The notes under the pieces are model-generated. The model was not told the DNA's origin, made no database searches, and saw only the letters and a list, made by a program, of their open reading frames with translations. Both the position numbers and the translations under genes were made by a program. 64,000 nucleotides of DNA from contig CM059432.1 of the NCBI GenBank assembly GCA_030390025.1, positions 41,294,001-41,358,000 of the forward strand. The letters are read 5' to 3'. Below, piece by piece: positions 2,554 to 63,456 of this stretch (positions are counted from its first letter, which is position 1; each line of letters starts with the position of its first letter). Origin of the DNA: Squalus acanthias (lineage: Eukaryota).

Positions 2554-2799
2554 GTATGCTTTCTATTTTACTCAGTGATCTAGACCGGGACTTGGATATG
2601 CTGGGTCTTGGCTTTGTAAGGGCAGAGACTCCGCTTGCCCCATAACGTCACTGACATAAGTGGGTGCTGGGGTAGGGCTCAGATCCGGGCTTGGATTATG
2701 GAAGATTTGATGAGCCAATATCTTTTTTACATTTTAGAACAGTCCTCTTTGAAAGGAACCTGAAACCTTTCCCCCAGCCCAGTCTTTAGCTGGGCTTTC

Positions 2800-4516: not shown

Positions 4517-4795
4517 AAGTATCAGGAGGCTGTTTGACTGCAGAGGGCACCACAGCCAACTCCAAATCCTGCCCTTGTTGAAGATCCACACATTCACACT
4601 TCCAGCAGGAGTCACTGGATAACATTCAGGAGTGGAAACCTGAGTTGACTTATTTCTTCCTAGCCCAGGAGCACTAAGGCGAAGTGTAGTGCCCCTCACG
4701 CCAGTCTGACATCTGCTAACCCAGTATAGATTGCTCCTGGAACTTTCTCAGTCTGTACGGCTCAACCACTCACTGGATTAACTGAACCACCAGGA
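4517..4795 (-). mobile_element. Old tRNA-derived SINE (second copy at about 32490-32750)
   Basis: Shares blocks with 32520-32740 (GGCTGTTTGACTG, CCTGCCCT, CAGCAG..GTCACT.GATA). A degenerate tRNA-like head reads on the minus strand. Confidence 0.5.
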
Positions 4796-6273: not shown

Positions 6274-6551
6274 AGGGCAGATCTTGTGCTGTTGTTTTCG
6301 ACTGCAAGTTCATCGAGACCTCTGCTGCAGTCCAGCATAATGTACAAGAACTCTTTGAAGGAATTGTGCGACAGGTGCGGCTCAGGAGAGATAGCAAAGA
6401 AGTGAATGAACGAAGAATGGCCCAGTACAAACGAAGAGAGAGCTTCCCGAGGAAGGCCCGACGCTTTTTGGATAAACTAGTGGCAAAGAACAATAAAAAG
6501 ATGGCTTATAAAGTGAGATCAAAATCTTGTCATGACCTTTCTGTACTATAA
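6274..6551 (+). CDS. GEM: GEM terminal coding exon
   Basis: TTTCATTTGCAG acceptor, phase 1. Translates EGRSCAVVFDCKFIETSAAVQHNVQELFEGIVRQVRLRRDSKE...KARRFLDKLVAKNNKKMAYKVRSKSCHDLSVL*, with the G5 ETSA motif, the basic calmodulin-binding region and the RGK C-terminal KSKSCHDLSVL-type motif. Confidence 0.96.
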
Positions 6552-12774: not shown

Positions 12775-13631
12775 GGGGGTGATTTTGTCAATGGGGGCAC
12801 GTTGGAGGCGGGACTGCTGCTTGTCGGGTTTCAGTCCCGCCTCCATCGACTTGTGGCCAACCCACGCTATTTTCCCTTGATTGACCTTGTTAAGCCCGCC
12901 CAGCGGGCTTAGCAGGCCAATTAAGGAGAAGCCGGTTACAGAGAACGTCAGCGTATGACGTTTCATCCGTCAAAAATTTTTGACAGATGAATTGACATCG
13001 TTTGACAGCTTTGAGAAGCTGTCAAACATTGACATTCTCTGTTGTTTGGTGAGTTCTTGTACTCAAGGCTCACCAAAACTCTTTTGTGAGCAGAAAGCAG
13101 ATGGCTGTTGCATCGGAGAATGCAGCAGCCATTCTGTCATCTCTGCCGTGGAGATGCCGGAGCCTCCGCATCCCCAACGATTGAAGCCTGCAGGAAGAAA
13201 CAAAGGTAAGGAAACTTTTTCTATCACTTTTCACTCACCTCACATACTTACCTCTCCACACTTGCACCCATCACTCACCTCCACAGCGCACTTTTGGACC
13301 CCTCCAACCCCCGCAGACCCACTGCTCACCTCGGAGACCCTGGCGGGGTTTCCCGACATCGGGAAGCCCGCACCTCTCCTGGAAAAATGGGGATAATCCT
13401 CTTAACTGCCTGTTAACTACCTGTTAACAGGCAGTTAAGTGGCTGTAATCCCCTTCCCGCTTCCAGGAGACGGGACCCGGCGCGGGTCGGGTACCCACCT
13501 CCTGGGAAGATGGCATGGAGGCAGGTTGGGGGTGGGGTGGGTACCCGGTGGGTACCCGCCCCCAGATTTTGCCATTTTCCCGGCAGTCCCGCTTCCAAAC
13601 CTGCCTCCCCAGGGCTGGCAAAATCGACCCC
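12775..13631. mobile_element. Harbinger-type MITE (857 bp) with 3-bp TSD ATT
   Basis: TIRs GGGGGTGATTTTGTCA and TGGCAAAATCGACCCC (13/16 match). ATT at 12772-12774 and 13632-13634. Several internal hairpins. Confidence 0.85.
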
Positions 13632-13681: not shown

Positions 13682-14969
13682 TAAGGTAAAAAATCACGGG
13701 ATTGGGGGTAATATTCTGGCATGGATAGAGGATTGGCTATCTAACAGAAAGCAAAGAGTTGGGATAAATGGTTCATTCTCAGACTGGCAATCAGTAACTA
13801 GTGGTGTTCCACAGGGGTCAGTGCTGGGTCCCCAACTCTTCACAATCTATATTAACGATTTGGAGGAAGGGACCAAGTGTAACATATCAAAATTTGCAGA
13901 TGATACAAAGATGGGAGGGAAAGTAGTGAGTGAGGAGGACATAAAAAACCTGCAAGGGGACATAGACAGGCTAAGTAAGTGGGCAGAGATTTGGCAGATG
14001 GAATACAACACTGGAAAGTGTGAGGTGATGCACTTTGGCAGGAAAAATCCTAGAGCAATTTATTATCTTAATGGCAAGAAACTGGAGAGTACTGAAGTGC
14101 AAAGGGATCTGGGGGTCCTGGTGCACGAAACTCAAAAGGTTAGTATGCAGGTGCAGCAAGTGATTAAGAAGGCAAATGGAATGTTGGCTTTCATTGCTAG
14201 GGGGATAGAATATAAAAATAGGGAGGTATTGCTTCAGTTGTACAAGGTATTGGTGAGACCGCACCTGGAATACTGCATACAGTTTTGGTGTCCTTACTTA
14301 AGGAAAGACATCCTTGCTCTCGAGGCAGTGCAAAAAAGGTTCACTCGGTTAATCCCGGGGATGAGGGGGTGGTCATATGAGGAGAGGTTGGGTAGATTGG
14401 GACTCTACTCATTGGAGTTCAGAAGAATGAGAGGCGATCTTATTGAAACATATAAGATTGTGAAGGGGTTGGATCGGGTGGATGCGGGGAGGATGTTCCC
14501 GATGACGGGTGAGACGAGAACTAGGGGACATAGTCTTAGAATAAGGGGCTGCTCTTTCAAAACTGAGATGAGGAGGAACTACTTCACTCAGAGGGTGGTA
14601 GGTCCATGGAATATGCTGCCACAAAAAGCTGTAGAAGCTACAACATTAATTAAATTTAAAACAGAAATAGACAGTTTCCTGGAAGTAAAGGGCATTAAGG
14701 GTTACGGGGAGCGGGCAGGAATTTGGACATGAGTCTAGGTTCGGATCGGTCATGGCCCTGTGGGTAGTGGAGCGGGCCCAGGGACTGTGTAGCCTGATTC
14801 TGCTCCTATTTCGTGTGTGCAATTCTGTTAGATGCAGGAGATGGTTCTGTGATAGATAGTAGATTGGCGGTTAGGATCAGATCAGCCATGATCTTATTGA
14901 ATGGCGGAGCAGGCTCGAGGGGCCGATTGGCCTACTCCTGCTCCTATTTCTTATGTTCTTATGTTCTTA
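13682..14969 (+). mobile_element. Young 5'-truncated CR1 LINE (C-terminal RT, 3' UTR, (TTCTTATG)n tail)
   Basis: Open RT frame with GVPQGSVLGP and FADD to the stop at 14732. Almost identical to the reverse complement of 22933-24220. Confidence 0.95.
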
Positions 14970-15581
14970 AATATAAAAATAAGGACAAAATTTATGAGTT
15001 TAAAATAGCGACTGAATTACATCTGTGAGTCCTGATATTCGCACACATAGGCCGGAATTTTCCTGTTGCCGTGCGTACGAGTTTGGAGGCGGGTCAGCTG
15101 TAAAAATAGCAAAAATATGCAGTGCATCGGGAACCTGCTGTCATCCTGCCTCCTCGCACCTTTAACTCGGGCTTGTTTGCCGATCGGGAGAGGCGGGCGA
15201 CCTCATTAAACTCATTAAATGCTTGTTATCAGACCCTTAACAGGGTTTTTAACTGGAGCTTCTGAATTTAACGGCATAAGCACGGGAAGCACGCAGCTTG
15301 GGAACCCCGCCTGTGAAGGGGAGGCGGAAGTTCAGTGGCCATTGTGTGAGGGCATTAATTGACAGCTGGAAATACCAGATAAATACACATACCATACAAC
15401 TCATTAGTTGCCTAAGGGAAAGGCTGTTGATGACTCATTTTGTGTACAGATTTAGGTTTCTGGAGTTTGCAGGTCATTTCTACAACCTCGGAAGCCACTC
15501 TCACTACATTGCTACTCACTATCACAACATTGAGAGATTGGCCCTCTGATCACTACTTGACCTGCCATCTACGACATCAGC

Positions 15582-16782
15582 ATGGGTGCCACTTATACTG
15601 TCTCACTTTGGTCCTCAGAATCGGACCAAGATGAGCATCAACACCAGCCACACCAGCAGCAGCAGCAGCAACCGCAACACCAGCCTTCTTCTCAATGACC
15701 TGATGCTCCACAGCAGAGAGGGGGGCACCACAGGGCTGCAGCACGCCGGAGGCGATACCCCCAACACAGGGTATACAGGCAGAGGATGAGCTTCCTCGAC
15801 ATGACTGAGCAGCAGTGCTTCAGGAGGCTCAGGCTATGGCGCCAGGTCGTCGCAGACATTTGTAGCTTGCTGAAACAAGACCTGCAGCCCAGAGGACCTG
15901 GTGGACACGCCTTACCAGTGGCTATCAAAGTCACCACCGCCCTCAACTTCTTCGCCTCAGGCTCATTCCAGGGATCTGCAGCAGACATTTGCAGGATTCC
16001 CGCAGTCGGCCACCCACAGATGCATCACCCAGGTCACTGATGCCATGTTTCACAAGTCAGCCAATTATATCAACTTTGCCACTGATGAAGCCAGTGTTAC
16101 TGAGCGGGCGCTCAGCTTTGCAGCTCTGGCTGTCTTCCCACAGGTGCAGGGCGTTATTGACTGCACAAATGTGACCATGAAGGCACCCCCGCATCACCCA
16201 GGAGTGTTTGTGAATTGCAAGGGCTTCCACTCCCTCAATGTGCAGCTCGTCTGCAACCATAAAAAGATCATCATACATGTGTGTGCCAGATTCCCTGGCA
16301 GCTGTCATGACTCTTTTGTCCTGTGCCAGTCCACCCTCCCTCAGCTCTTCGCACCTCCAAATAGACTTACCGGCTGGCTGCTTGGAGACAAGCACTATCC
16401 ACTGAAGATATGGCTCATGACACCCCTGAGGAGGCCAAGTACCGAGGCCGAGGAACGTTATAATGAGAGCCACATCTCCACCAGATGTGTAATAGAAAAA
16501 GCAATAGGCATGCTGATGATGCGCTTCAGATGCCTTGAAAGATCTGGAGGAGCCCTTCAGTACGCACCAGCCAGGGTCTCCAGAATCATCATTGTCTGCT
16601 GCGCGCTGCACAACACAGCTCAGCAGTGAGGATTGGAGCTGCAGGAGGAGCATGGTGCAGAGCGCACAGCCTCTTCAGAGGAGGAGGAGGAGGAGGAAGC
16701 TGAGATGCACATGCCACCAGCAGCGACGCACATTGCTACCCGGGAGACCCGGGATGGCCTCATCATGGCCAGATTAACTTAA
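15582..16782 (+). pseudogene. Harbinger DDE transposase pseudogene (HARBI1-like family)
   Basis: ATG at 15582, in-frame TGA near 15696, frameshift near 16000, TGA at 16627 and terminal TAA at 16780-16782. Motifs: [58 protein letters not shown]. Confidence 0.92.
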
Positions 16783-17099
16783 CTTGCTCCAATGCAGGCA
16801 CATGCCTGCCACATGCTGTACTAAGTCCCCCTCCCGCCCCCCACCCACAACACCATAAAGCATCCCTACAATGACCAAGCCATTGCTCTCACTCAAAGGT
16901 CCAATGTTCGAGGTTAAATAGTGTCTCACCATTCGCTCCAAGTGACAAAGCCACTTCCAAGGTTTGACGCAAAAATAGACAAGTTTCGAAAGTGATGCAA
17001 GGAAAAACATTTATGTGTGTAATCAAAACAACTGAAACTTCGCACTAACATTTGTTGATACACCCATGTTCTTACCCTTGTGCATCTACTTTTGTGTCA

Positions 17100-18952
17100 G
17101 TTTTCATTTCTGCGTGGTTCTATGAGGTGCAACCCCTGTGGCTTCAGCAGATGTAGAGGCAGCCTGCTCACTTCCCTGCTGCGACTGCATAGACACTTTT
17201 GGCGGATGTCCTCTGGGTTTTGAAGCCTATGATGGCCCCGCCAAAGTCTGCTCCTCCTGTGTCTGTGCAGGGGCAAACTTGGCCATCGGGATCCAAGGAA
17301 GCATCTGGAGCTCTGACTGAGGGAGAGGCAACGGGTGAGAATTGGGAGCACTTTGAGAAGAGCCCCCATTTCCATGTCCCCTCTCACTTTCATCCCTCTC
17401 ATGGGCCACCCACACTTCCCTGCTAGCAAGGAGCTGGAGAGCACCTTGCTGCACAACAGTGGGGCGATGAAGGCCCAAGTCAATGTTTACATCTCTCCTA
17501 GAGAGGAGGTCTATGAGCGCCTGCCATCTGTTGTCCACAGCTAGCATGTGCTCATGTGAGTGGCACATTTGCTGCTCCTTGCAGGTGGCCATCATTTCCA
17601 TGGAATAGCACATCGTCACCATCGCCTGCGACATGGTGGTGCTCATGTTGGTGATTGACTCCTCCATTCTCTGAACATTTGCAGACATCGTGGCTGCAAA
17701 AGATGCCAGAGCCTCATGCAATTGTTGCTGCCCCTCCAAGATCATCCTCTTTCTCAATGGCCTCAGAGGCTCAGCATCTGCATGCAGTTCAGCAGAGCTT
17801 GGAGCGTCCTGCGCCCTCCAGCGAGGAGTCACCACTGCTGTCCCCGTCAACACCATCTGCTCTTGCTCACTTGTGAATTGTGAGGCACCAGGTGACAACT
17901 GTACTGTATGGCGCAAAGGACCCACCGAGGACCCACAGTGCATATCTGCGCAGATGCTGGGTGGGCTTGGGTCTGCTGACGGTGCACCCTCAGAGGCTGG
18001 AGTCTCCTCTGAGGAGTCATCTTCTTCCTCCAGCTGGACAGTGGGGGGGTCAGTTTTGGACCTGTGGGAGAGTAACGAGATGAATTAGAAGTGTTGTAAT
18101 AAGAATGGGTAACGTTACCATTATGCACATGATGACATTTCACTGGCTGCTGACATGAGTCACCATATGGGTGACTGTTGTATATCATGTGGCTTTATGA
18201 GATGTGATTCTGTTAACAGGGATGTGCTCCTCTCTCCATCTCCCACCACCAGTGTCTCTCGAGCTCCAGAAATTTCCAGAGCCGCCTCCTCTGCTGCTGT
18301 CAGATGTGCAATGACCGGAGGGCCACCTTTGGTCTCTCCCTCTCCCTGTTGTTGTGATCTCTCTTCTCTGGCAAGGAGGGAAAGAAGAGAAGTTTGAGTG
18401 AGAGTGATGGAATGAGTGTAATGAATGGATGGGTTACATCTGTAGAGGGTGACTATGAGGGAGTGGGTTGCCAATGCCAAATGGCCACCTTCTGTGGTGT
18501 TACTTGGTATGATTGCATTAGGATGAGGGTGAGTGTAAGGGGTGGTTAGTCAGATGGTGATGTGAGTATGTGCATACAGAGAGAGGGATGGGTGGACGTG
18601 CAAGGTATGTTGATGTGAGTAATGATGTGCAGGAGTAGGCTTGGGAAGGCAGAATGATGGGGATGTGTTGACAGGCACTTCAGGATGAGGGTGAGTGTGG
18701 TACTGCACTCACCTTTCCTGACCTCATGAGATCATTGAAGCGCTTCCTGCACTGTATCCAGGTCCTCCTGACCACATCCCTGCTGCTGACCTCCTCAGCT
18801 ATATTCAGCCAGGCTCTCTTTGTTGCTTGTGGAGATCTCCTTTGCGTGTCAGCAGGGAAGAGGACCTCCCTCCGTGCTCTGACAGCCTTCACAAGAGTAT
18901 GCAAGAAAGAATCCGAGAACCAGGGTGCAGCCATCTGCCTTTGGCTATCCAT
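17100..18952 (-). pseudogene. Harbinger #1 Myb/SANT-like DNA-binding protein gene (3 exons, degenerate)
   Basis: Exon 1 (18952-18713) reads MDSQRQMAAPWFSD...AWLNIAEEVSSRDVVRRTWIQCRKRFNDLMRSGK then GTGAGT. Exon 2 starts near 18367 (TKGGPP..HLTAAEEAALEI) and is frameshifted. Exon 3 starts near 18061. Confidence 0.85.
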
Positions 18953-19384
18953 GTTTCAAAAGTTTTATCTCTCCTGTGGCCTTTTCTCCACACTTTTCAT
19001 CCTCCTCTGGAAACCTTCAAGTGAGTTCAGTGCAAGGCTGCTTTAAATATGCAAAGTGATTATTTGCACGGCATTTTTTGACTCCCTCTGCGCATGCGCG
19101 CCTGTTTTGCGGACTCAATCCGGTCGCGCATGCACAGTACGATATATGAGGAAGCTGGAAGTAGGGCCGAACCATGTTGGTGAGACTAGAGCTGCTGCCA
19201 TTGCCACCTGCCTTGTCTGCTGCTCGAGCCTGAGCCTTCTACAAGGGATTTTGGGTTATCTTTCGAAAATCAATGACTATACTAAAGGAGCCTCCTGGAC
19301 TTTTGCCTAGAATACCGCTGTGATTATCTACACGAACATTTTCGTGGCCTTCTGAGAAAGAGAGGAAATCAGGGGTGGTGATGG

Positions 19385-19700
19385 TGGGAGAGAGAGTGGG
19401 GCAGAGAGAGAGCGAGTGGGGCAGAGAGAAAGAGAGTGGGGTAGAGAGAGAGAGGGGGCAGAGAGAGAGTGGGGTAGAGAGAGAGAGGGGGCAGAGAGAG
19501 AGAGAGAGAGTGGGGCAGAGAGAGAAAGAGAGGGGCAGAGAGAGAGGGACAGAGAGAGAGAGAGAGACTGGGGGAGAGAGGGGGAGAGAGAGAGGGGAGA
19601 GAGAGAGAGAGGGACAGAGAGAGAGACTGGGAGGAGACAGAGAGAGAGAGGGGACGGGGAGAGAGGGGATCGGCGGGGAGAGAGAGAGAGGGAGGAGAGG
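19385..19700. repeat. (GA)n / purine-rich low-complexity tract
   Basis: Directly visible. Confidence 0.9.
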
Positions 19701-20012
19701 AGGGGAGCGGAGGTCAAGAACTCAGGGAGAGAAGGTCAGGAACTCGGTGGGGTGGCGGGGGGGTAAAGAGTACAGAGAGCACAATGGGGATAGTGGAAGA
19801 ACGTGATCTAGGTCTAAAGGGGGGGGGATGAGAGCGAGAACGTGATCCAGATGGTAAGATGGATCACATTCTTCCAACCCCACCCCCTTTACACCTACAC
19901 CACATTCTCCCTCTCCTCCCCCTACACCTGGTTGATTTCTTGGAAAGCTCGGTGCGTGTGTGGCAAGTGATATCATTGAACTGGGCGAAATCCGGAAGTC
20001 ACGACACTGTCA

Positions 20013-20285
20013 CATAGAAACATAGAAACATAGAATTTAGGAGCAGGAGTAGGCCATTCGGCCCGTCGAGCCTGCTCCGCCATTCAATACGATCATGGCT
20101 GATCATCCAAATCCAGTACCCTGTCCCTGCGTTAATCCCCACAGTACACATATCCCACCCTACCCCCGTAACCCCACGTATTTAATTCCCCCTAACATAT
20201 CCCATCCTATCCCCATAACCCCACATATTTAATCCCCCCTAACACTAAGGGTCAATTTATCATAGCCAAATCAACCTAACCCACA
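20013..20285 (-). mobile_element. 5'-truncated HE1-like SINE
   Basis: Near-identical to the reverse complement of about 63180-63450. (CATAGAAA)n tail. Confidence 0.85.
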
Positions 20286-20390
20286 CTATTCACTTCATAC
20301 CCAATAAACCTGTTAACAATCCGTGACACACATACAATGCCCCATCTATGGTGGGGTGGGAGGGAAGGTCAGGAACTTGTTAGGGGAGAA

Positions 20391-21027
20391 GCCTTTATTA
20401 CAAGAGGATTTGATTATAAGAGTAAAGACGTCTTACTGCAATAATATAGGGCCCTGGTGAAACCATACCAGCAGTACTGTGTGCAGTTTTGGTCTCCTTA
20501 CCTAAGGAAGGATATACTTGCCATAGAGGGAGTGCAACGTAGGTTCACCAGATTGGTTCCTGAGATGGGGGGATTGTCCTATGAGGAGAGATTGAGTAAA
20601 CTAGGCCTGTATTCTCTAGAGTTTAGAAGAATGAGAGTTGATCTCATTGAAACATACAAAATTCTTACAGGGCTTGACAGGGTAGATGCAGGGAGGATGT
20701 TTCCCCGGGCTGGGGAGTTTAGAACCAGGGGTCACAATCTCAGAATAAGGGGTCGGCCATTTAGGATTGATACGAGGAGAAATTTCTTCACTGAGGGTGG
20801 TGAATTTTTGGAATTCTCTACCCCAGAGGGCTGGAGAGGCTCAGTCGTTGAGTATATTCAAGACAGAGATCGATAGATTTTTGAATATTAAGGGAATCAA
20901 GTGATATGGGGATAGTGCAGAAAAGTGGAGATGAGGTAGAAGATCAGCCATGATCTTATTGAATGGCGGAGCAGACTCGAAGGGCCAAATGGCTTACTCC
21001 TGTTCCTATTTATTATGTTCTTATGTT
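20391..21027 (+). mobile_element. CR1 3' fragment
   Basis: YCVQFWSPYLRKDILAIEGVQRRFTRL..., CR1 3' UTR and TTATG tail. Removing it restores the host repeat unit GGAGAAGGTCA. Confidence 0.9.
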
Positions 21028-21514
21028 AAGGTCATGAATCTGTGGGGGAGGAACTTGGGCAGGGGGAGAAGGTGAGGAACCGGTGGGGGGCGGGGGAGGG
21101 GAGGTGGTGAGGGAAGAAGGTCAGAAACTCGGGCAGGGGGAGGTCAGGAACTTGGGCGGGGGGGAGAATGTCGGAAACTTGGGAGGAGAAGGTCAGGAAC
21201 TTGGGCGGGGTGGGGGAGGAGGTCAGGAACTTGGGGGGTGGGGGCAGGATATTGTTTGGTGGTGTGGAAGAAGGTCTTAACCCGCGAGGGTGAGCGCTGT
21301 CTTTTCCAAGTGAGCTCTGTTCTGTCTGGAGTAGGCAGTCAGAATGGCTTGAATTACACTTTGTAAAGTAACTGATTACGTAGGCAGGGAGGATCTAATT
21401 ACACATTCCAGAGAAACTGCTGGGTGTGTCTTCTCCTCCAAGGGGACCAATCAGCAATCAGGACTTGTCATCCAAGGGGACCAATCAGAGCTTTAGGTGC
21501 TGCAAATAAACACG

Positions 21515-21793
21515 TTAAGGTGATTGGCAGAAGAACCAAAGGCGGCATGAGGAAAAACTTTTTTACGCAGCGAGTGATTAGGATCTGGAATTCACTGCCT
21601 GAAAGGGTGGTGGAGGCAGATTCAATTGTGGCTTTCAAAAGGGAATTGGATAAGTACCTGAAGGAAAAAAAATTGCAGGTGTACAGGGAAAGGGCGGGGG
21701 AGTGGGACTAGTGAAGTGCTCTTGCAGAGAATCAGCACGGGTTCGACAGGCCGAATGGCCTCCTTCTGTGCTGTAACCATCCTATGATTCTAT
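21515..21793 (+). mobile_element. CR1 3' fragment whose (ATTCTATG)n tail is split by Harbinger #2 and resumes at 29287-29296
   Basis: KVIGRRTKGGMRKNFFTQRVIRIWNSLPERVVEADS...; tail reads CCTATGATTCTAT, then the element, then TATGATTCTA. Confidence 0.9.
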
Positions 21794-22151
21794 GGGGTAG
21801 AAATTAGGTCGCGCCCCATTTGGGGCGCAAATATCGTCCGCGCGCAAATATTAGCGCCTGGCGCTAATTATCGGCACTGACAGGAAACTTCACTTTTACC
21901 GCCCCGGGAGGTGAGTGGAGCGCTAAATTAGGCGCTGCACACCTCTCTTAAGGCGCAAAGGCCTAGGAGTGAGGCGCTACCTCAGCGCACGAGCGCAGCG
22001 CAGCTGCTGCCAGTTAGCGAGGGAATACAGACACACTGGCGCCGGACACTTCTTAAAGCGGGGGGGGGCCACTTGCTCCCCAGCCACACCCTGCTCATTG
22101 CAGCCTTGAATCTCAGCCTGGAGAGACCTGTAATCCATTTTGCTGCCAAGC

Positions 22152-25100
22152 ATGGAGAGGGTGAGAGAACGCGCTCATCGCTTCACCGAGCGGGCCTTGG
22201 ATGCTCTGGTTGACGCAGTGGAGCGCAGACGATGCATGCTGTTCCCGGAGAGTGGCAGGAGGCCTTTGCCACGCGAGTTCAGAAGAGTGTGGAGGGAGGT
22301 GGCTCAGAGCGTCTCCTCCAGGAGCATGGTGCCCAGGACCCATGTTCAGTGCCGCAAAAAGTTCAACGACCTCACTCGGGTCGTCAGGGTGAGTGGCTTT
22401 TTCTCAATACCTCTCCATCCCTCCATCTCAACCTCACTCTATGGCCAGAGGGTCTTAAAACCCCAATGCACAACACTCATGCAACACCTATGGCCCTTTC
22501 ATCAAACACACACACACATTCCACACTTTGCATACAGTAAGGGCTATTCACCTATGGGAGGCACATCAGGCAAGACCATGGCTGCATATTGTAAGGGCTA
22601 TTCACCTATGGGAGGCACATCAGGCAAGACCATGGCTGTATATTGACTCAGATGCTGTCCTTTTTCTTGCAGGCTAAGCTGGCTCATAATCGGAGACAGC
22701 AGCAACGGACGGGTGGAGGGCGGCTTCAGCTGCAACCCCTCAGCGATCTGGAGGAGCGCGTCCACAGGATTGTGGCAAGCCGGGTGATCGGTCCCGTCGC
22801 CACTGGGGACGCCGACCCCGTTGTGGACAGCAATGGTAAGGTCATCACCTTTTTGTCCTCTGTCCTTCCACTTGTCCCTCACAATACCAGCCTTTGACAC
22901 TTTCAATCCAACTTGCTAACTCGCTGCACTTATAAGAACATAAGAACATAAGAAATAGGAGCAGGAGTAGGCCAATCGGCCCCTCGAGCCTGCTCCGCCA
23001 TTCAATAAGATCATGGCTGATCTGATCCTAACCGCCAATCTACTATCTATCACAGAACCATCTCCTGCATCTAACAGAATTGCACACACGAAATAGGAGC
23101 AGAATCAGGCTACACAGTCCCTGGGCCCGCTCCACTACCCACAGGGCCATGACCGATCCGAACCTAGACTCATGTCCAAATTCCTGCCCGCTCCCCGTAA
23201 CCCTTAATGCCCTTTACTTCTAGGAAACTGTCTATTTCTGTTTTAAATTTAATTAATGTTGTAGCTTCTACAGCTTTTTGTGGCAGCATATTCCATGGAC
23301 CTACCACCCTCTGAGTGAAGTAGTTCCTCCTCATCTCAGTTTTGAAAGAGCAGCCCCTTATTCTAAGACTATGTCCCCTAGTTCTCGTCTCACCCGTCAT
23401 TGGGAACATCCTCCCCGCATCCACCCGATCCAACCCCTTCACAATCTTATATGTTTCAATAAGATCGCCTCTCATTCTTCTGAACTCCAATGAGTAGAGT
23501 CCCAATCTACCCAACCTCTCCTCATATGACCACCCCCTCATCCCCGGGATTAACCGAGTGAACCTTTTTTGCACTGCCTCGAGAGCAAGGATGTCTTTCC
23601 TTAAGTAAGGACACCAAAACTGTATGCAGTATTCCAGGTGCGGTCTCACCAATACCTTGTACAACTGAAGCAATACCTCCCTATTTTTATATTCTATCCC
23701 CCTAGCAATGAAAGCCAACATTCCATTTGCCTTCTTAATCACTTGCTGCACCTGCATACTAACCTTTTGAGTTTCGTGCACCAGGACCCCCAGATCCCTT
23801 TGCACTTCAGTACTCTCCAGTTTCTTGCCATTAAGATAATAAATTGCTCTAGGATTTTTCCTGCCAAAGTGCATCACCTCACACTTTCCAGTGTTGTATT
23901 CCATCTGCCAAATCTCTGCCCACTTACTTAGCCTGTCTATGTCCCCTTGCAGGTTTTTTATGTCCTCCTCACTCACTACTTTCCCTCCCATCTTTGTATC
24001 ATCTGCAAATTTTGATATGTTACACTTGGTCCCTTCCTCCAAATCGTTAATATAGATTGTGAAGAGTTGGGGACCCAGCACTGACCCCTGTGGAACACCA
24101 CTAGTTACTGATTGCCAGTCTGAGAATGAACCATTTATCCCAACTCTTTGCTTTCTGTTAGATAGCCAATCCTCTATCCATGCCAGAATATTACCCCCAA
24201 TCCCGTGATTTTTTACCTTAAGCAATAATCTTTTGTGTGGCACCTTGTCAAATGCCTTTTGGAAGTCTAAATACACTACGTCCACTGGTTCCCCTTTATC
24301 CACTCTATATGTTACTTCCTCAAAGAACTCCAGCAAATTTGTCAAACATGACTTCCCCTTCGTAAAACCATGCTGACTTTGTCCTATTAAATTATGATTA
24401 TCCAAATGTCCTGTTACTGTTTCCTTAATAATGGACTCCAAAATTTTACCTACCACAGATGTTAGGCTAACCGGTCTATAGTTACCAGCCTTCTGTCTAC
24501 TGCCCTTTTTAAATAAGGGTGTTACATTAGCAGTTTTCCAGTCTGCCGGGACCTTAGCGGAATCCAGGGAGTTTTGAAAAATTATTACCAATGCATCTAC
24601 AATCCCTACCGCCACTTCCTTCAAGACTCTAGGATGTAAGCCATCAGGTCCAGGTGATTTATCCGCCTTGAGTCCCATTATTTTACCGAGTACCACTTCC
24701 TTAGTGATTTTGATCGTGTTTAGCTCCTCTCCCCCTATAGCCCCTGTTTGTCCAGTTTTGGGATATTCTTAGTGTCCTCTACTGTAAAGACTGATACAAA
24801 ATATTCATTCAGTGTTTTTGCCATCTCCATATTTCCCACCATTAATTTCCCGGTCTCATCCTCTAAGGGACCAACATTTACTTTAGCCACCCTTTTTCTT
24901 TTTATATAACTATAAAAACTCTTACTATCTGTTTTTATATTTTTTGCTAATTTACTTTCATAATCTATCTTCCCTTTCTTAATCAATCTTTTTGTTATTT
25001 TTTGCTGCCTTTTAAAGTTTTCCCAATCCTCTGTCCTCCCACTAGATTTCGCTACCTTATATGCCCTTGTTTTTAGTCGAATACTATCCTTAATTTCTTT

Positions 25101-27319
25101 ACTTAGCCACGGATGACTGTCCTTTCTTTTACACCCTTTTCTTTTCAGTGGAATATATTTTTTTTGGAAGTTGTAAAATAACTCCTTGAATGTACACCAC
25201 TGATCATGTGTCGTCTTACCCTTTAATCTATTTTCCCAATCCACTCTACTCAATTCCGCTCGCATACCTTCATAGTCTCCTTTATTCAAGCTTAGCACGC
25301 TTGTTTGAGATCCAACCTTCTCACCCTCTAATTGAATATGGAATTCAACCATGTTATGGTCACTCATTCCAAGGGGATCCTTTACTAGGACATTTTTAAT
25401 TAATCCTGTCTCGTTACACAGGACCAGATCTAAGGTTGCTTGCCCCCTGGTCGGTTCAGTTACATACTGCTCAAGAAACCCATCCCTAATACACTCAATG
25501 AACTCATCCTCAAGGCAGCCCTGCCCCATTTGATTTGTCCAATTAATATGATAGTTAAAATCCCCCATAATTATAGATGTTCCCTTATTACATGCCTCAA
25601 CTATTTCCTGATTGATACTCCGTCCAATAGAGTTGCAACTGTTCGGAGGCCTATAGACTACGCCCACTAATGTTTTTTTCCCCTTATTATTCCTTATCTC
25701 CACCCAAACTGTTTCATTATCATGATTTTTTGACCCAATATCATGACTCTGTATTACAGTGATTCCTTCCTTTATTAACATAGCCACCCCACCTCCCCTT
25801 CCTTCCTGCCTGTCCTTCCTGATCGTTAAATAACCTGGTATGTTTAATTCCCAGGCATTGTCACCCTGCAGCCATGTTTCTGTAATGGCCACAATATCAT
25901 AACCATATGTAGTTATTTGTGCCATTAACTCGTCTATTTTGTTACGAATGCTACGTGCATTCAGATAGAGAACTTTCAAATATGCTTTGTGGCACTTAGT
26001 TCCTGCTTTTTCACTTTTTACCAGTTTACCTTTTACTCCACACACTCTGTCCCTTCCTGCCACGCTCTGATTTGTGATTCCCCTACTGCTACCTATGTCT
26101 ATGACCCTCTCTGTTGTCATTTTTATTTTTTGCTCTCTTGAAACCTCCCCCCCACTAATTAGTTTAAAGCCCTCTCCACAGCCCTAGTTATTCCTCCCTT
26201 ACTGCCACCCTGTCCTCACGCTAAAGCCACTCTTGTACCTCCCTGCTTTCAGATGGTGATTCACCAGCTGAGGAGATGGTCCCTGAAGCTGCCACTGGGA
26301 GTGATGCTGCAGCTGAGGAGGAAGAGGAAGCCAGAGCATCAGTGCCACCCTCTCCCGAGGAAGCCCATGGCCACACTGGGAACACGCCTTCCCCGGAGGG
26401 GAGCAGGGGGGAAGGGGCTGATGATGGTGAAGTTCCAGGACCCAGCGGGCTGCAGCAACGCCATTGGGGGGGGAGGGAAGAACGGGGGAGCAGGGGGGAA
26501 GGGGCTGATGATGGTGAAGCTCCAGGACCCAGCGGGCTGCAGCCACGCCATGGGGGGGGGAGGGAAGAACGGGAGCCTTCTCCCCAGAGGGAGAGTATGC
26601 CAGACACTCCTAATGCAATGGACGCAGAGGAGGAGCGGCTGATTGCAGAAATGAACAGCCAGGCGGTGGGCATGCACACTGAGCTCATGGGTGCAGTGGG
26701 AAGGGTGCCCGAATGCATTGAGGCACTGGCAAGGAGTGTGGAGCACTTCGCTGTAGCACAGGCGGATGCCACACTAAAGCTTAGTGCTGCAATTCAGTCA
26801 CTGGCTGCCAGGAACCCATCTGAGACTGCTCTCATGCAGACTCAGATTGAGGCCACGCGAGCACTGACTGCTGCCATCCTCGATGGTTCGTGCACATGTC
26901 CCCGGGGCTGTCACCGCGCCGCAGCAGGCCAGCAATCTGTTCTCCGGCAAATTGCTCCGGATGCTGAAGTGCTGCCCCGTGGGAGTGCCAGTGTGTCGGG
27001 CGAGCAGGGAGTTGCTGTCCTCTCTCACGATGACAGCATTCCTGCTGCCAACACTGTCACTTCTCCACTGCACTTGCCACCGCCTGTAGGACAGACTGCT
27101 GCCGCCCATGCAGAGTTGGTGCAGTCTGCAGCCGGGCCCTCCAGGCCCAGAAGTGGTCGAGGCCGTCCTTCAGGGGCATCTGCAGTGTCAGGGTCTGACA
27201 AGCAGCAGCCTTCCACCAGCCTTGCTGCAGCCACTGAGGTCCCATTACGGAGGAGCAGTAGGGTTAGAAGGGGGGAAGTGCGCAAGGGAAGGAGATCACC
27301 CTCGAAGGGCAAAAAGTAG
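22152..27319 (+). CDS. Harbinger #2 Myb/SANT-like (trihelix) DNA-binding protein; exons 22152-22388, 22673-22835, 26253-27319 (488 aa predicted)
   Basis: Exon 1 reads MERVRERAHRFTERALDALVDAVERRRCMLF...RVWREVAQSVSSRSMVPRTHVQCRKKFNDL then GTGAGT. Exon 2 reads AKLAHNRRQQQRTGGG then GTAAGG. The exon 3 acceptor CTTTCAG is phase 1 and in frame with the 347-aa ORF. Total 1467 nt. Confidence 0.85.
22933..26190 (-). mobile_element. Young CR1 LINE (end of ORF1, APE+RT ORF2 with a single frameshift near 24740, 3' UTR), antisense in intron 2 of the Harbinger #2 Myb gene
   Basis: APE motifs YLNARSIRNK, ITETWL, MGDFN, SDH (26120-24735). RT motifs YRPVSLTS, QGSVLGP, FADD (24696-23170). TTAT at both junctions. 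Confidence 0.97.
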
Positions 27320-27613
27320 GAGGTGTGCCAAAATGCTGGTCATTTTTTTATTAAAGGCCGAGGTTCATGGCCCAACTTTTGTTTAGTGTTTTGGACATTA
27401 TCTCCAGGTTGTGAGAACCAGTTATGTTATTGACTGTTTTTTTGTGTTTATTTCTATGAGTTTGTCATGAGGAATTGACACACACAGAGTTTGTACAATA
27501 AATAAGTTTCTGTATTCAAAATATACATGGCTGGTGGTTGGAATTATTGGTGCCTTGGCCGGCTTAGGGGTTGCGTGCTGGGTTGATTCGTGTTTGTAGC
27601 AATGGCAGGGGCC

Positions 27614-28774
27614 CTAGAAGCGGCTTGCTATTAGTCGTTGACGGACGGCCCTTGCAGTTTGACCATTGTGGGCCGCCCTCCTGCCTTGGTGCTGCTGCTG
27701 ATCATCGTCCTCGGCCTGTTCCTCCTCTTCCTCCTCCTCCTCTTGTGGTGCTGCAAGGCCTGGTGGCATTGGCTGCGTCCTGAGGATTGCCATGTTGTGC
27801 AACATGCAGCACACCACTACGAATTTGGAAACTTGATCAGGCGAGTACTGCAGGGCTCCTCCGGAATGGTCCAGACAGCGGAATCGTTGTTTGAGCACGC
27901 CGATTGTGCGCTCAATAATGTTCCTGGTTGCTTGTTGGCTTTCCTGGTACCGCAGCTCAGCAGGGGTGTTTGGCGCACGGAGCGGTGTCATCAGCCAGGT
28001 GCTCAATGCGTACCCCTTGTCCCCCAGAAGCCAACCAACTGGCTGATGCGGTGCCTCGAAAATTTCTGCCACAGTACTCTGGCGCAGGATGAAAGCATCG
28101 TGGCAGCTGCCCGGATAGTGGGCATTGACAGCGAGAATCACCTGTCTGTGGTCACAGACCAACTGCACATTCAAGGAATGGAACCCCTTTCTGTTCCGGA
28201 ACTCCTCTGCATTCTCTCGCGGAGCACGCAAAGCCACATGCATGCAGTCAATGGCGCCCTGCACCATGGGGAAGCCCGCTACCCTCGCAAAGCCCATAGC
28301 ACGGTCATGCTGCTTGTCTGGGGTCATAGGGAAGGAGATGAAGTCTCGTCTCCTTGTGAAGAGGGCATTGGTGACCTGCCGGATGCAGCGATGCACCGCA
28401 AACTGGGAGATATTGGCGAGGTCCCCAACAGCAGCTTGGAATGAGCCAGTGGCGTAGAAGTTCAAAGCCACTGTGACCTTCACTGCCACCGACAGAGACG
28501 TCCTGGACCTCAGCTGAGGCTGCAGATCTGGCTGCAGCAGGTGGCAGAGCTCAGTGACCACCTCCTTGCTGAATCGCAGCCTTCGCAAACACAGCTCCTC
28601 GGACATGTGGATGTAGGAGAGCTGTTCACGATATACCCTGGGAGGGTAAGCTCTCCTGTACATACGCCTGATGGCCCTCCTCCGTCTGGCCATCATTGCC
28701 ACTCTCTGTCTGCGTCTCACTATCCTCCGATTGAGCTGGAGCAGGACGACGCCCCCAATCATTGCAGCCCCCAT
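27614..28774 (-). CDS. Harbinger #2 DDE transposase, 386 aa, uninterrupted
   Basis: HTH region LRFSKEVVTELC...ALNFYATGSFQ. Catalytic motifs GAIDCMHV, PGSCHDA, LLGDKGY, IIERTIGVLKQRFRCL. Acidic tail. Confidence 0.95.
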   Translation of the reverse strand: MGAAMIGGVVLLQLNRRIVRRRQRVAMMARRRRAIRRMYRRAYPPRVYREQLSYIHMSEELCLRRLRFSKEVVTELCHLLQPDLQPQLRSRTSLSVAVKVTVALNFYATGSFQAAVGDLANISQFAVHRCIRQVTNALFTRRRDFISFPMTPDKQHDRAMGFARVAGFPMVQGAIDCMHVALRAPRENAEEFRNRKGFHSLNVQLVCDHRQVILAVNAHYPGSCHDAFILRQSTVAEIFEAPHQPVGWLLGDKGYALSTWLMTPLRAPNTPAELRYQESQQATRNIIERTIGVLKQRFRCLDHSGGALQYSPDQVSKFVVVCCMLHNMAILRTQPMPPGLAAPQEEEEEEEEQAEDDDQQQHQGRRAAHNGQTARAVRQRLIASRF

Positions 28775-28969
28775 ATTCTCTTTGCCAGAAAAGTAATGAG
28801 GTACAGCAACGAAAGTAGCAGCAAAGTTAGGATGAACTAGGCAAAACTACCTCACAAAGCGTTGAGTCAATGTAGAAGTCTCTCTCTCTCTCTCTCCGAA
28901 TCTCTCTCTCTCTCTCAGAACGAGTGGTGCATAAATGTCGACCACAGAAAAAGACAGGAAGAGGCCCCC

Positions 28970-29114
28970 TTTAAATAGCGCCCCCCCCAGCCCCACACCG
29001 ATTGATAACGTTCCAGTCTTCCGGTCGTTGGAAACGCCAGGCGGTAAGGCAGGGGGCGCCACTCAATTTCCGCTCCGGGGCGCCCCAAGGGCGTTGCACC
29101 ACGGAATGACGTCA
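28970..29114 (-). promoter_or_regulatory. Putative Harbinger #2 transposase promoter (TATTTAAA box and TGACGTCA CRE)
   Basis: TTTAAATA at 28970-28977 and TGACGTCA at 29107-29114. Both are retained in the related MITE (59958-59965 and 59821-59828). Confidence 0.55.
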
Positions 29115-29571
29115 CAATCTGCGCGCGCAGGTGGTCGCAGCGGTAAGCTTTAGCGCCGCCGCACAATCTCAAGTTAAGTTCTCGAGCGGCGCAAACAGTG
29201 CTGCGCCCGGGCGTTAGCGCCTTAACGCCCCATTAGCGCCCTTTTAAGGCGCTAACGGGAGGCGCAACCAACTGAATTTTTACCCCTATGATTCTACGTC
29301 CTTAAATATAGGCACTGGAAACGAGTCATTGATTACATCATCAGACCCATACCATTTAATAGGGCCAGGAAACGCGCGTGACTCTTTCAATTGGGGCCAT
29401 TAAGTGAAAGTCGCTCTGAGCAGCGCATTGCGCAGAACATCATGTTTTGGACTTGCTACGCCGCCCGCACGCACCAAAATGGACGCAAAGGTGAAAATTC
29501 CGGCTGTAGTTTTTTATGTTATATAAGTCTTCCAGATCTTACAATTGAAGTTGTGTTTTGTGGGTAGTCAC

Positions 29572-30356
29572 CTTAGTATAGTCAAAGTGTTAACTTCAAA
29601 AGAGCTTTTAATAATGATAGGGTGTATTATATTTTGATTCAGCTGGAAGTCATCTTCTAAGAAATCTGAATTTTGGTCCAGTCCAAAGATCCTGATTTAG
29701 AAGTATCTACCCCTCTAAGAAAAGACCAGTGCACAATGGGACAGTTTGCTGTCTTTTTTCAGTCTAGCTGATAATATTTTATTGGCCGTACACCATGGAT
29801 TTAAACTCTGGCATGTTTCTGATGACAGGGAGAAAACTATTTTGTGATGGTACCTGTATGAACTGTTTATAGTGGGCCCAGGCTTCTGGCATGTCCAATT
29901 TTACCTGGTAGTCAGGTGCATCCATGGTATCTGATTTCCTCATTCCACCATTATTGTGACTCTGACCTTGGGAGCCTCGAAGTATCTTTGGTTATTGTGA
30001 CAATGTGTGTGCTATTGTAACAGAACCTTAAATATAGCAGAGAAAAACGACAGGACCAAAGTTCAATCACCATATATTGAGATAACAATTGTGATTCAGA
30101 GTCTTACCTTGAGGGTGTGTGTGTGTGTGTCATTTTACAATTCAAGTTTCATCCCCAAGATATAAAAAATGATTAACAAAACAAGCTATTGTTAAGTCTT
30201 ACTTAGTATAGTCAAAGTGTTAACTTCAAAAAAGCTTTTAATAATGATAGGGTATATTATATTCTGATTCAGCTGGAAGTCATCTCCTAAGAAATCTGAA
30301 TTTTGGTCCAGTCCAATGATCCTGATTTAGAAGTATCTACCCCTCTAAGAAAAGAC
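29572..30356 (+). repeat. 155-bp direct repeat pair (29572-29726 and 30202-30356)
   Basis: CTTAGTATAGTCAAAGTG...CCCTCTAAGAAAAGAC occurs twice, 630 bp apart, with about 5 substitutions by eye. Confidence 0.92.
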
Positions 30357-36445: not shown

Positions 36446-37283
36446 GGCCCTGATATTTACAGGAAGGTGGGGAGGCAGCAGAGGGGGTGGGGGGCGGGGT
36501 TGTACTGGCTGGGAAACCCGGAACTGCGGGTAACGCGGAGGTCCTGCCGAAGTTAACGGCAGGGACCAGTTTGAATTTTTTTCTCTGTTTCCCGGCCGGC
36601 AGTCAGCCAGCCATTTTGAGAGGCTGGCTGGCTGTTGGGCAGGAAAGCCTGCAACGGAAGGCCGCAGCCGGGGAGCGTAGAGAAGGAAGAGAGAGATCAT
36701 TGGGGGTTAGGGGACATCACGGGGGCGAGGTCGCAGGTCGGTGAGATCGCAGGGGGGCTTCAGATCATGAGTCAGGTAGGAGATGGTGGGTCCGCCTGGA
36801 GATCGGGGGTGGGGTGGGTGGGGTGGCATCGGGACATGAGGGGCGGGGTCGGCTGATCGCAGTAGGGGGGGAAGCCCGATTGTGGGGACAGAAGCCGATC
36901 ATAGTAGGTTAGCTTAGGGGGCCGGGGGAAAGCATTCCTGCTCCTCCTGGCCCACAAGCAGTGCTGGAAAAGCACTTAACTGCTGGATCCAGCTGTTCTC
37001 GCTTCCCTTCAGCTATTGGGTTTCCTGAGGCCTGGGAAACCGGGTCTGCAGCTGTTAAATGTAAAAGTCTGTTAAAATCTGAGGCATGCAGCCTCATTAG
37101 CATATTTAAATTACTGCCCCACCTCTTGAGAGCAGGTTACTCGCCTGCCCCCCAACCCACCCTGGTTAAACCAGAAGTATGTGCGTTTGTGGCTGGTTGA
37201 GGTCGGGTTTCAGATTTTTTAGAATTTAACCCGCCCCCACCCCGACACTGTCCCACCCGTCCTGGATGTTTAAAATTCCCCCC
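36446..37283. mobile_element. Harbinger-type MITE with TSD ATT and divergent ends
   Basis: ATT then GGCCCTGATATTTA at the left; TAAAATTCCCCCC then ATT at the right. GC-rich body typical of the MITEs in this window. Confidence 0.55.
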
Positions 37284-38039
37284 ATTATCTCAGGTATAGA
37301 GTCACTCCCGTAAGCAGCCCAAGTGTGCCGCACTGCCCAATATATGATAGTGTAATTTGGGGGTGTAACAATAGGACTCTCTTGTGTCTCTAAATTCAGC
37401 CACACGGTGCCTGTTTTTCGGCTGCTAACCAGCCTACTAAACCCTCAATATTGAAGGCAGGAAGCGTGCGCACATTTCCGGCTGGAAATGCACCGCCCAC
37501 CATATTGGGACAGGAAAAAAAAACCATACAGTGCCCACACCTGAAATAGGCGTTCGGCCCTTCGCATGTGCAAATAAGGAGCCTAATGCCTATTTGAGGC
37601 CCCCACTGCAAAATTGGTTTGCCCTCAGGCAGCAAAACCAGACCTGGGACCAGCTGCTACTAAAAAAGTGAAGTTTTTGAAATTTACTTACCTGAATGTG
37701 GAGCCAGAAGGAGCAGGATCGAATTGAATGGCGGAACAAGTTTGAGGGGTTGAGTGGCATACTGCTGCTCCTATCTTCCTATTTTCCATATGTTAGTGTT
37801 AAATAGACTGTCATCCGTTATATTCTACAAAATGGCTCATCTGGCTTTATTATAGATCTGCAACCTGTGACTTTATTTTAAAACTCATTCCCAAACTCTT
37901 GAAATAAACTATCAAAAATCACAACATTGACAGACATACTGTAGAATATTTTTGATCGGAAAAACTCTTTTTCCCATAACTTTGCTCTAGCTGCTTTTTT
38001 TTGGATGGCCAACAGGATGTATGGCCCTCCTTCTTAAAT

Positions 38040-63451: not shown

Positions 63452-63456
63452 GGATA

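Follow-up and report, generated by a model that had tools for sequence, protein, structure and literature searches.

The relative age of transposable elements that lie inside one another is implicit in the organisation of the cluster they form, as set out by Giordano et al. 2007 (PMC1914374). For the human genome that work gives 636,125 interruptions and 307,412 clusters, of which one alone holds 86 interruptions, and its interruption matrices include contemporaneous families that interrupt each other in both directions. A preference for landing in elements already present, and for certain positions inside them, has also been described (Levy et al. 2009, PMC2836564). Among DNA transposons, PIF/Harbinger elements, including zebrafish Harbinger3_DR, are described as having separate genes for a transposase and a Myb-like protein, terminal inverted repeats, a 3-bp target duplication, an extended target preference and short non-autonomous derivatives, with both proteins required for transposition (PMC2836001). 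Merlin elements are characterised by a target duplication of 8 or 9 bp, a terminal 5'-GG, inverted repeats of 24-462 bp and a DDE_Tnp_IS1595 transposase (PMC8101967), and duplications of 4-10 bp are given for the wider MuDR/Mutator group (PMC10045372). Reports from sharks and rays include LINEs of the CR1 clade as well as the V-SINE HE1, whose partner is HER1 (PMC3747384, PMC4824008).

The locus described here is a nest of five transposable-element layers at positions 15050-29505 on the forward strand of the window (i.e., the whole 64,000-nt stretch of DNA that was analysed), with junctions that can be read directly. As in the clusters of PMC1914374, relative age follows from the nesting; unlike the genome-wide matrix described there, which allows for overlapping activity, our evidence comes from a single shark-like locus. 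We consider it very probable that the stack is nothing out of the ordinary, with transposable elements having piled up one after another in the repeat-rich DNA of a cartilaginous fish. A sequence-only reading of the window had proposed this five-layer nesting, which was borne out, with the named features found where that reading had put them. To compare the locus with other copies, contigs of 4 of the 20 listed public runs (X1, X5, X6 and X16; three organisms) were aligned to the window; relatives (contigs at least 82% alike) covered 30 of 30 bins in all four runs. The features of the nest are as follows.

15050-19050, no strand: left part of layer 1, a decayed two-gene Harbinger (Harbinger #1), with left inverted repeat, transposase, Myb/SANT gene and Myb upstream region
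15582-16783, plus strand: Harbinger #1 transposase, from three-frame translation and tblastn
17100-18952, minus strand: remains of the Myb/SANT gene of Harbinger #1, with an open first exon (18952-18713) and the exons after it placed only roughly
19043-19050, plus strand: left copy of the layer 2 target duplication, TTAAATAT
19051-21513, no strand: layer 2, a non-coding repeated element with about 1.55 kb of its own sequence, comprising inverted repeat, GA-rich tract and internal tandem units
20012-20284, minus strand: 5'-truncated SINE with a CR1-like 3' end, from similarity and an empty site
about 20387-21029, plus strand: older CR1 3' fragment with octamer tail, splitting one internal repeat unit of layer 2
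21514-21793 (start 21514 or 21515), plus strand: left part of layer 3, a CR1 3' tail of 280 nt, from similarity, a contig and the inverted-repeat register
21794-29286, no strand: layer 4, Harbinger #2, 4,235 nt without the inner CR1, with an inverted repeat (11/12) and a TAT duplication in the CR1 octamer tail
22152-27319, plus strand: Harbinger #2 Myb/SANT gene, 488 aa with no internal stop, exons 22152-22388, 22673-22835 and 26253-27319
22933-26190, minus strand: layer 5, a very young 5'-truncated CR1 LINE in intron 2 of that gene, from Pfam and empty sites
27614-28774, minus strand: Harbinger #2 transposase, open, 386 aa (Pfam DDE_Tnp_4, E 3.6e-37)
29287-29296, plus strand: right remnant of layer 3, the end of the CR1 octamer tail, opening with the duplicated TAT, from junction reading
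29297-29301, no strand: last 5 nt of layer 2, the outer part of its split inverted repeat, in the register giving 14/18
29302-29309, plus strand: right copy of the layer 2 target duplication, TTAAATAT
29310-29505, no strand: right part of layer 1, 196 nt with the right inverted repeat, from that repeat and bridging contigs

The outermost layer holds a DDE transposase and a separate Myb/SANT gene (Pfam DDE_Tnp_4, E 6.7e-35, and Myb_DNA-bind_5, E 6.5e-10), as PIF/Harbinger elements do, and the transposase, which is 55% identical to that of Harbinger #2 over 206 aa, is broken by two stops (near 15697 and 16627) and one frameshift (near 16000). Its termini carry the 12-mer GCCGGAATTTTC at 15051-15062 and the exact complement at 29493-29504, a pairing that did not recur when the 14.5-kb interval was shuffled 300 times. 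The element is best drawn one base wider at each end, as 15050-29505: over the extended length the inverted repeat matches at 12 of 13 positions, two contigs from another copy begin or end their match at 15050, and position 29505 is C in contigs of all four runs. The flanks are then ATA and GTA (i.e., a putative 3-bp duplication with one mismatch), and only in the 15050/29505 register do the outer flanks jointly complete the motif A-N-N-Y[TSD]R-N-N-T, which fits 1.8% of window positions. Ends at 15049/29506 or 15051/29504 were rejected, as they give no duplication and leave the flank motif incomplete. Single contigs in organisms A and I bridge the right end and its flank (rows 29505/29528).

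Layer 2 is bounded by the TTAAATAT direct repeat, a duplication of 8 bp (or 9 bp with one mismatch), and by an imperfect inverted repeat of 18 bp that matches at 14 of 18 positions, with a core (19056-19068 and 21501-21513) matching at 12 of 13; three other ungapped registers score 5-6 of 18. Taken alone, the 8-bp repeat is weak evidence, the 8-mer occurring eight times within the 64-kb window and recurring in 904 of 20,000 shuffles (4.5%). Duplication and inverted repeat together were reproduced in 1 of 20,000 shuffles, in a test devised after both features had been seen, and the pair of features supports layer 2 better than was first thought. A contig of another copy starts matching at 19055 after 47 foreign letters; a start at 19056 without a duplication is possible and would need two coincidences. 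By depth the element is multi-copy, with coverage that varies greatly along its length (about 100-700 at 19.2 kb and about 56,000 at 21433 in X1), and among the contigs listed none joins its left end to its body. A 20-nt pattern from its right end found no match in JGI metagenomes.

The class of layer 2 is suggested, at most, by its ends. The duplication length fits Merlin; unlike Merlin, layer 2 has an imperfect inverted repeat of 18 bp, and in this single copy one end reads GG and the other GC. Pfam searches of five layer 2 open reading frames gave no match at E 0.1, the DDE_Tnp_IS1595 transposase of Merlin included; such a lack is expected for a non-autonomous copy, and it therefore speaks neither for nor against a Merlin partner. 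MuDR/Mutator elements have AT-rich duplications of 8-11 bp and G...C termini, with which the 8-bp duplication and G...C termini of this one copy are compatible. Elements of the hAT group, with their 8-bp duplication, end in (C/T)A...T(A/G), a pattern that the G...C termini of layer 2 do not fit. Kolobok elements duplicate TTAA, and that reading was rejected: the left TTAA has no matching terminus after it.

The outer layers could have been paired wrongly, with 29310-29505 belonging to another Harbinger-type element, or with 19.05-19.35 and 21.25-21.51 kb being separate, in which case the true depth would be three to four layers. The Harbinger #1 inverted repeat is not unique, because a 12/13 copy terminates a different element at 4515; the ATA/GTA duplication carries its mismatch; the depth of layer 2 is uneven and its 8-mer, taken by itself, would arise by chance 4.5% of the time; and the join 19050>29310 is absent from the 15 joints listed of 3,220. 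These same 15 include neither 21514>29297 nor 21793>29287, and the absence of all three is uninformative. For two of these three outer joints, the right side is too short for them to be expected from non-orthologous copies. Against mis-pairing stand the joint shuffle result for layer 2, the flank motif completed across 14.4 kb, and the length of the rejoined Harbinger #1, which at 4,197 nt is within 1% of the 4,235 nt of Harbinger #2, both having a convergent two-gene layout. In both Harbingers a TATA-like word also lies about 95-100 nt upstream of the Myb start, and a search of 19.0-21.8 kb for a second candidate Harbinger #1 end with at most two mismatches found none. We thus regard mis-pairing as improbable and infer that the two parts of layer 1 were once joined at 19050 and 29310.

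Within layer 2, the CR1 tail of layer 3 sits 5 nt inside the right end and splits the inverted repeat. Two other pieces of CR1, at 58427 and 61087, match it at 86-89%, and a single contig covers 21515-21794 in one piece. Its octamer tail in turn hosts Harbinger #2, which shows the following PIF/Harbinger features: a DDE transposase, a separate Myb/SANT gene (Pfam Myb_DNA-bind_5, E 1.3e-09; exons inferred from GT-AG sites and reading frame), inverted repeats and a perfect 3-bp TAT duplication. Both genes are open, and the closest relatives of the transposase are cartilaginous-fish proteins annotated as 'putative nuclease HARBI1' (60-66% identity in the top three). An 897-nt MITE related to Harbinger #2 lies at 59649-60545. 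Compared with Harbinger3_DR, the Harbingers here belong to shark lineages and have duplications TAT and RTA, and Harbinger #2, in which neither gene is interrupted by a stop, is a naturally occurring copy. It probably did not arrive through RNA, because its Myb introns are kept although the gene runs in the same direction as the CR1 that hosts it. Its insertion site fits A-N-N-Y[TSD]R-N-N-T, a motif that was full in two, half present in one and absent in one of only four elements. In lying within a CR1 tail at a position that matches the motif, it resembles the positional preferences of PMC2836564, which are described there for human Alu, hAT, ERV1 and MaLR elements; here a preference of Harbingers for CR1 tails was tested at one site.

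The innermost layer encodes an apurinic endonuclease and a reverse transcriptase (Pfam Exo_endo_phos and RVT_1), is 5'-truncated and ends in a short-repeat 3' tail, as CR1-type elements do; by tail and domain layout, layers 3 and 5 are putative members of the CR1 clade. A few bases of microhomology mark its junctions. The copy had been called young, and a near-identical neighbour (13682-14969, 2 differences in 1,288 nt) agrees with this, yet the reading frame already has one frameshift near 24.74 kb. Empty sites, proposed earlier as a check, were found in contigs of other copies for both this CR1 and the SINE: the former as joints 22929-22931>26188-26191 in X1, X5 and X16 with matching loose ends in X6, the latter as joint 20010>20284 in all four runs.

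The SINE and the second CR1 piece entered layer 2 independently and are side branches, unordered relative to layers 3-5. The SINE, putatively HE1-like, is 97.5% identical to a copy at 63170-63445 and shares its 3' end with CR1 (20011-20141 being 89% identical to the CR1 end at 40955-41085, over 132 nt). V-SINEs of the HE1 type have a tRNA-derived head and an 80-bp V-domain; the insert lacks a head, and an Rfam search of a longer copy (62900-63500) gave no tRNA-like match and one chance match at E 0.91. The older CR1 fragment is 78.8% identical to 40458-41080, with junctions read directly; the 15 joints listed do not include an empty site for it. The CR1 and SINE copies resemble the reported CR1-clade and HE1/HER1 elements in their endonuclease and reverse transcriptase, 5' truncation, octamer tails and shared SINE 3' end.

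That part of the stack was built elsewhere and moved as a unit, so that arrival order differs from nesting order, is a scenario to which we give little credence. Both Harbingers keep their ends, and Harbinger #1 could have carried layer 2, or Harbinger #2 the inner CR1, which lies in an intron. Against this, Harbinger #2 is abundant in copies that lack the inner CR1 (with joint depths reaching 3,410), and the inner CR1 is separated from its neighbouring copy by just those two differences; for layer 3 such transport is unlikely, as the CR1 splits the layer 2 inverted repeat. We find it hardly conceivable that the stack is an assembly artefact, i.e., a mis-join or inversion through the inverted CR1 copies at 13682-14969 and 22933-24220. 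These two copies face each other over 1,288 nt at 99.85% identity, as an inverted repeat, and among the contigs listed none spans the entire stretch; but the left halves of layers 1-4, between the CR1 copies, pair in the correct orientation and register with right halves outside them, and an inversion would destroy all four pairings.

On the serial pile-up that we favour, a two-gene Harbinger would have inserted with a 3-bp duplication and decayed later, and a non-autonomous inverted-repeat element would then have entered the region upstream of its Myb gene, duplicating 8 bp. A truncated CR1 would next have landed 5 nt inside the right end of layer 2, splitting the inverted repeat and probably immobilising the element. 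Intact Harbinger #2 would then have inserted as DNA into the octamer tail of that CR1, at a site matching the flanking motif that Harbingers appear to prefer, which may be the reason for its landing there, before a very young CR1 landed in its intron; the SINE and the other CR1 piece would have entered layer 2 independently. Decay agrees with this order, as had been claimed, the outer transposase being broken and the inner one open over 386 aa. CpG relative to GpC counts, compared only between the two Harbingers, were 101/306 in Harbinger #1 and 189/387 in Harbinger #2 (Fisher p 0.007), the difference being non-significant when three gene parts were compared singly (p 0.07, 0.09 and 0.36). CpG counts do not rank age across unlike element classes; the observed/expected ratio of the inner CR1 (0.39) resembles that of the old Harbinger (0.36). 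Of 40 tool-chosen difference rows among 3,018, the Harbinger #1 body accounts for 22, layer 2 for 9 and Harbinger #2 for 5, while the inner CR1 has 2, as does the right end with its flank. How closely the Harbingers match annotated shark proteins (76% identity for Harbinger #1, 60-66% for Harbinger #2) does not serve to date them, because a Harbinger #2 query was used to gather the 120 proteins.

The insertion order of these individual copies, including their nesting, is supported by the two empty sites and by the inverted repeat and duplication of layer 2. The stronger claim, that the stack gives a direct chronology of at least four families (Harbinger #1 older than layer 2, then the CR1 of layer 3, Harbinger #2 and the CR1 of layer 5), goes too far, and we consider it unlikely. 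The agreement of decay with the order favours it, as do the flank of the Harbinger #1 right end, which organisms A and I share, and the depth at four listed Harbinger #2 sites (29002-29023), which is 157-425 in organism I and 555,000-710,000 in X1, as if this subfamily had spread later. By contrast, every layer has relatives in each of the four runs when contigs 82% alike are counted, and several Harbinger #2 coding bins are deeper in organism I (for example 28178-28666: 1.30 million, against 0.55 million in X1), as is the inner CR1, pointing to families that overlap in time, with the caveat that summed depth is not copy number. One nest orders copies rather than families; the side branches are unordered relative to layers 3-5; and the insertions of layer 2 into Harbinger #1 and of the inner CR1 into Harbinger #2 could predate the locus, in a donor copy that jumped. 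Published family chronologies, as described in PMC1914374, rest on genome-wide interruption matrices, in which the reciprocal interruptions of contemporaneous families are documented.

Nested pile-ups of this kind are ordinary and well known, with hundreds of thousands of nested clusters described in one vertebrate genome (PMC1914374). We are doubtful of a more far-reaching reading, in which deep shark stacks grow by directed steps, Harbinger #2 is a natural vertebrate Harbinger, still mobile and autonomous, with a subfamily that spread once the sampled species had separated and is guided to CR1 octamer tails by its target motif, and layer 2 represents an undescribed, abundant shark family of DNA transposons with 8-bp duplications and short, imperfect inverted repeats, outside Merlin and hAT. 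A search of the open-licence literature found no papers on nested or active Harbingers in sharks, and the Harbinger families and the layer 2 family may be undescribed. The stack serves as a worked example for a shark repeat library, giving the exact ends of two Harbinger families and one unclassified element, and its useful by-products are an apparently intact two-gene Harbinger, a young CR1 family with near-identical neighbours and an unassigned 8-bp-duplication family.

The sequence-only reading described a five-deep nest of transposable elements, and this observation was confirmed: the nest is real and a clean example. From the outside inwards it consists of Harbinger #1 (layer 1, 15050-29505), an unassigned element (layer 2, 19051-29301), a CR1 tail (layer 3, 21514-29296), Harbinger #2 (layer 4) and an inner CR1 (layer 5). 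The two innermost elements and the gene upstream of the stack are as follows.

21794-29286, Harbinger #2, inverted repeat matching at 11 of 12 positions, TAT on both sides
22933-26190, minus strand, inner CR1 with endonuclease and reverse transcriptase
1235-6551, RGK-type small GTPase gene with three coding exons, two of them with Pfam Ras matches

The last exons of this Ras-family gene, which we take to be GEM-like, end near 6550, and no host gene was seen inside the stack. A short exon at 51917-51985 codes for a signal-peptide-like start; going by human gene order beside GEM, we assume that it could be cadherin-17.

In silico excision of the inner CR1 (Pfam Exo_endo_phos, E 2.8e-14; RVT_1, E 2.8e-31; octamer tail present; one frameshift near 24.74 kb) left a 159-nt GT-AG intron in the three-exon Myb/SANT gene of Harbinger #2, which then encodes 488 aa with zero internal stops. 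Contigs from three public sequencing runs (X1, X5 and X16) connect 22929-22931 with 26188-26191, and a fourth run (X6) has matching loose ends; an empty site for the inner CR1 therefore exists in other copies. A further CR1 copy at 13682-14969 differs from it at 2 of 1,288 positions, meaning that the subfamily is very young, and the presence of two such copies 8 kb apart suggests current activity or local gene conversion. This second copy is 5'-truncated and inverted relative to the inner CR1, with its end 80 nt to the left of Harbinger #1; the inverted pair could template an inversion. Furthermore, a 191-nt contig from organism B, one of three labelled organisms, is identical to the inner CR1 at 25956-26146 with a depth of 876. 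The young subfamily is thus abundant in another labelled organism, with close kinship, slow change or transfer as possible explanations.

In Harbinger #2 the two genes are open and the two ends intact, the intronic CR1 being the sole interruption. Among the 120 relatives listed for its transposase (386 aa; Pfam DDE_Tnp_4, E 3.6e-37), nearly all are shark and ray proteins carrying the name ‘putative nuclease HARBI1’, with 60-66% identity in the top three, which points to a cartilaginous fish as the source of the DNA. Two tandem duplications lie in the Myb gene, an in-frame one of 87 nt at 26398-26573 and one of 54 nt in the first intron at 22529-22645. The surrounding layer 3 is a 280-nt CR1 3' end, 86-89% similar to other CR1 pieces within the window, whose octamer tail resumes for 10 nt past Harbinger #2. 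The empty site of Harbinger #2 is absent from the 15 of 3,220 contig joints displayed, and other copies would not be expected to yield it. Because the Myb introns were kept though the gene lies in the CR1's sense, we infer that Harbinger #2 arrived as DNA, inserting into a pre-existing CR1 tail. An 897-nt derivative of Harbinger #2 with related ends (76-83%) lies at 59649-60545; this MITE has a TTT duplication and a 16-bp perfect inverted repeat, and forms part of a second, three-deep nest, sitting in a CR1 that itself lies in a CR1 3' end (58427-58536 and 61087-61263).

The insertion of layer 3 into layer 2, and layer 2 itself, had the least support in the first reading. The 8-bp direct repeat is unconvincing by itself, since 904 of 20,000 shuffles of 18953-19350 produced one. 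However, the 13 nt that immediately precede the CR1 tail match the reverse complement of 19056-19068 at 12 of 13 positions, and no other pair of this kind with one mismatch occurs in the window. With the 5 nt on the far side of the tail included, the inverted repeat grows to 18 bp with 14 matches (three alternative ungapped registers gave 5-6), and its two arms lie immediately inside the two copies of TTAAATAT. The two repeats occurred jointly in 1 of 20,000 shuffles, in a test designed after the fact. Given that the CR1 splits the right inverted repeat, layer 2 had probably settled at the site before the CR1 came. Reads agree that it is a repeated element: the empty site of a SINE inserted in it (20010 joined to 20284) is present in all four runs, and in an organism-I contig the match begins at 19055 after 47 foreign letters. 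Against this, read depth at the right end is far above that at the left, and among the contigs displayed none connects the body with the left end. None of five layer-2 ORFs tested matched a Pfam family. In this copy layer 2 departs from Merlin, as described in PMC8101967, in its terminal GG and in the length of its inverted repeat, and it is left unassigned.

Harbinger #1 retains remnants of transposase and Myb genes (Pfam); the former has 2 stops and one frameshift and is 55% identical to the Harbinger #2 transposase. Its exact 12-mer inverted repeat was found in none of 300 shuffles, and a scan allowing up to 2 mismatches placed it at 15050, at 29505, in the Harbinger #2 coding region and at 4515 (the end of a different element), with none near 19.2 kb. 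Contigs of another copy cease to match at 15050, and at 29505 a C is present in contigs from all four runs, making the terminal match perfect. In this register the flanks (ATA/GTA, one mismatch) complete the motif A-N-N-Y[TSD]R-N-N-T; shifting the register by one base in either direction loses it. Among four elements the motif is complete in both Harbingers, half present in one MITE and absent in another. The halves of Harbinger #1 appear to join from 19050 to 29310, giving 4,197 nt compared with 4,235 nt for Harbinger #2; a contig with this join is not among the 15 of 3,220 joints displayed. The two-gene make-up of both elements agrees with the PIF/Harbinger description in PMC2836001, as do the inverted repeat and 3-bp duplication of Harbinger #2.

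Further repeats occur elsewhere in the window. The element ending at 4515 (~2900-4516) lies in an intron of the Ras-family gene, ends in a 12/13 copy of the Harbinger #1 inverted repeat, is full of a 27-28 nt C-rich tandem repeat and resembles an element at 36455-37285. A Harbinger-type MITE (12775-13631; ATT duplication) lies within or beside an apparent decayed Harbinger-type element starting at 11284, and a third, more decayed Harbinger transposase remnant (38697-38894) is 40% identical to that of Harbinger #2 over 73 aa. Directly right of Harbinger #1 is a 155-nt direct duplication (29572-29726 and 30202-30356; 97%), and an organism-A contig over 29402-29620 shows 22 gap letters relative to the window.

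The suggestion that decay agrees with nesting order held between the two Harbingers (CpG/GpC 101/306 in Harbinger #1 vs. 189/387 in Harbinger #2, p 0.007), but was not significant in any of three single gene parts (p 0.07-0.36). Of 3,018 difference rows the tool selected 40: the Harbinger #1 body accounts for 22, layer 2 for 9, Harbinger #2 for 5 and the inner CR1 for 2, and the remaining 2 fall at 29505 and 29528. Single contigs of organisms A and I run from the right end of Harbinger #1 into its flank (rows 29505 and 29528, with depths of 13 and 33), and the insertion is therefore common to both. For the four Harbinger #2 sites that were displayed (29002-29023), summed depth was 157-425 in organism I vs. 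555,000-710,000 in X1, which hints at a later spread of this subfamily.

The first interpretation is thus partly supported: the nesting stood, but a direct chronology of four or more families was too strong a reading. Relatives cover 30 of 30 bins in four runs at 82% likeness, and summed depth, which is not copy number, is higher in organism I than in X1 over several coding bins of Harbinger #2 and over the inner CR1. Two nesting steps could have taken place in donor copies. The side inserts in layer 2, a SINE at 20012-20284 that is presumably HE1-like (97.5% to another copy) and a second CR1 piece (~20387-21029; 79%), are side branches, unordered relative to layers 3-5. Rfam gave no tRNA-like match on the longer SINE copy. 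HE1 is described as a V-SINE of sharks and rays in PMC3747384, PMC4824008 and PMC10468316. According to Giordano et al. (PMC1914374), one cluster by itself implies an order of age, families require a genome-wide matrix, and contemporaneous families interrupt each other.

For the human genome the same paper counts 307,412 clusters and 636,125 interruptions; two other papers report that transposable elements favour existing elements and particular spots within them (PMC2836564), and that deep ‘matryoshka’ nesting is resolvable with existing software (PMC7755421). Nesting is common, and the stack is an instance of a known phenomenon. A search of open-licence literature at the level of listings turned up no publication dealing with shark Harbingers that are nested or active. 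What remains of value at this locus is the intact Harbinger #2, together with the layer-2 family, which is left unassigned.
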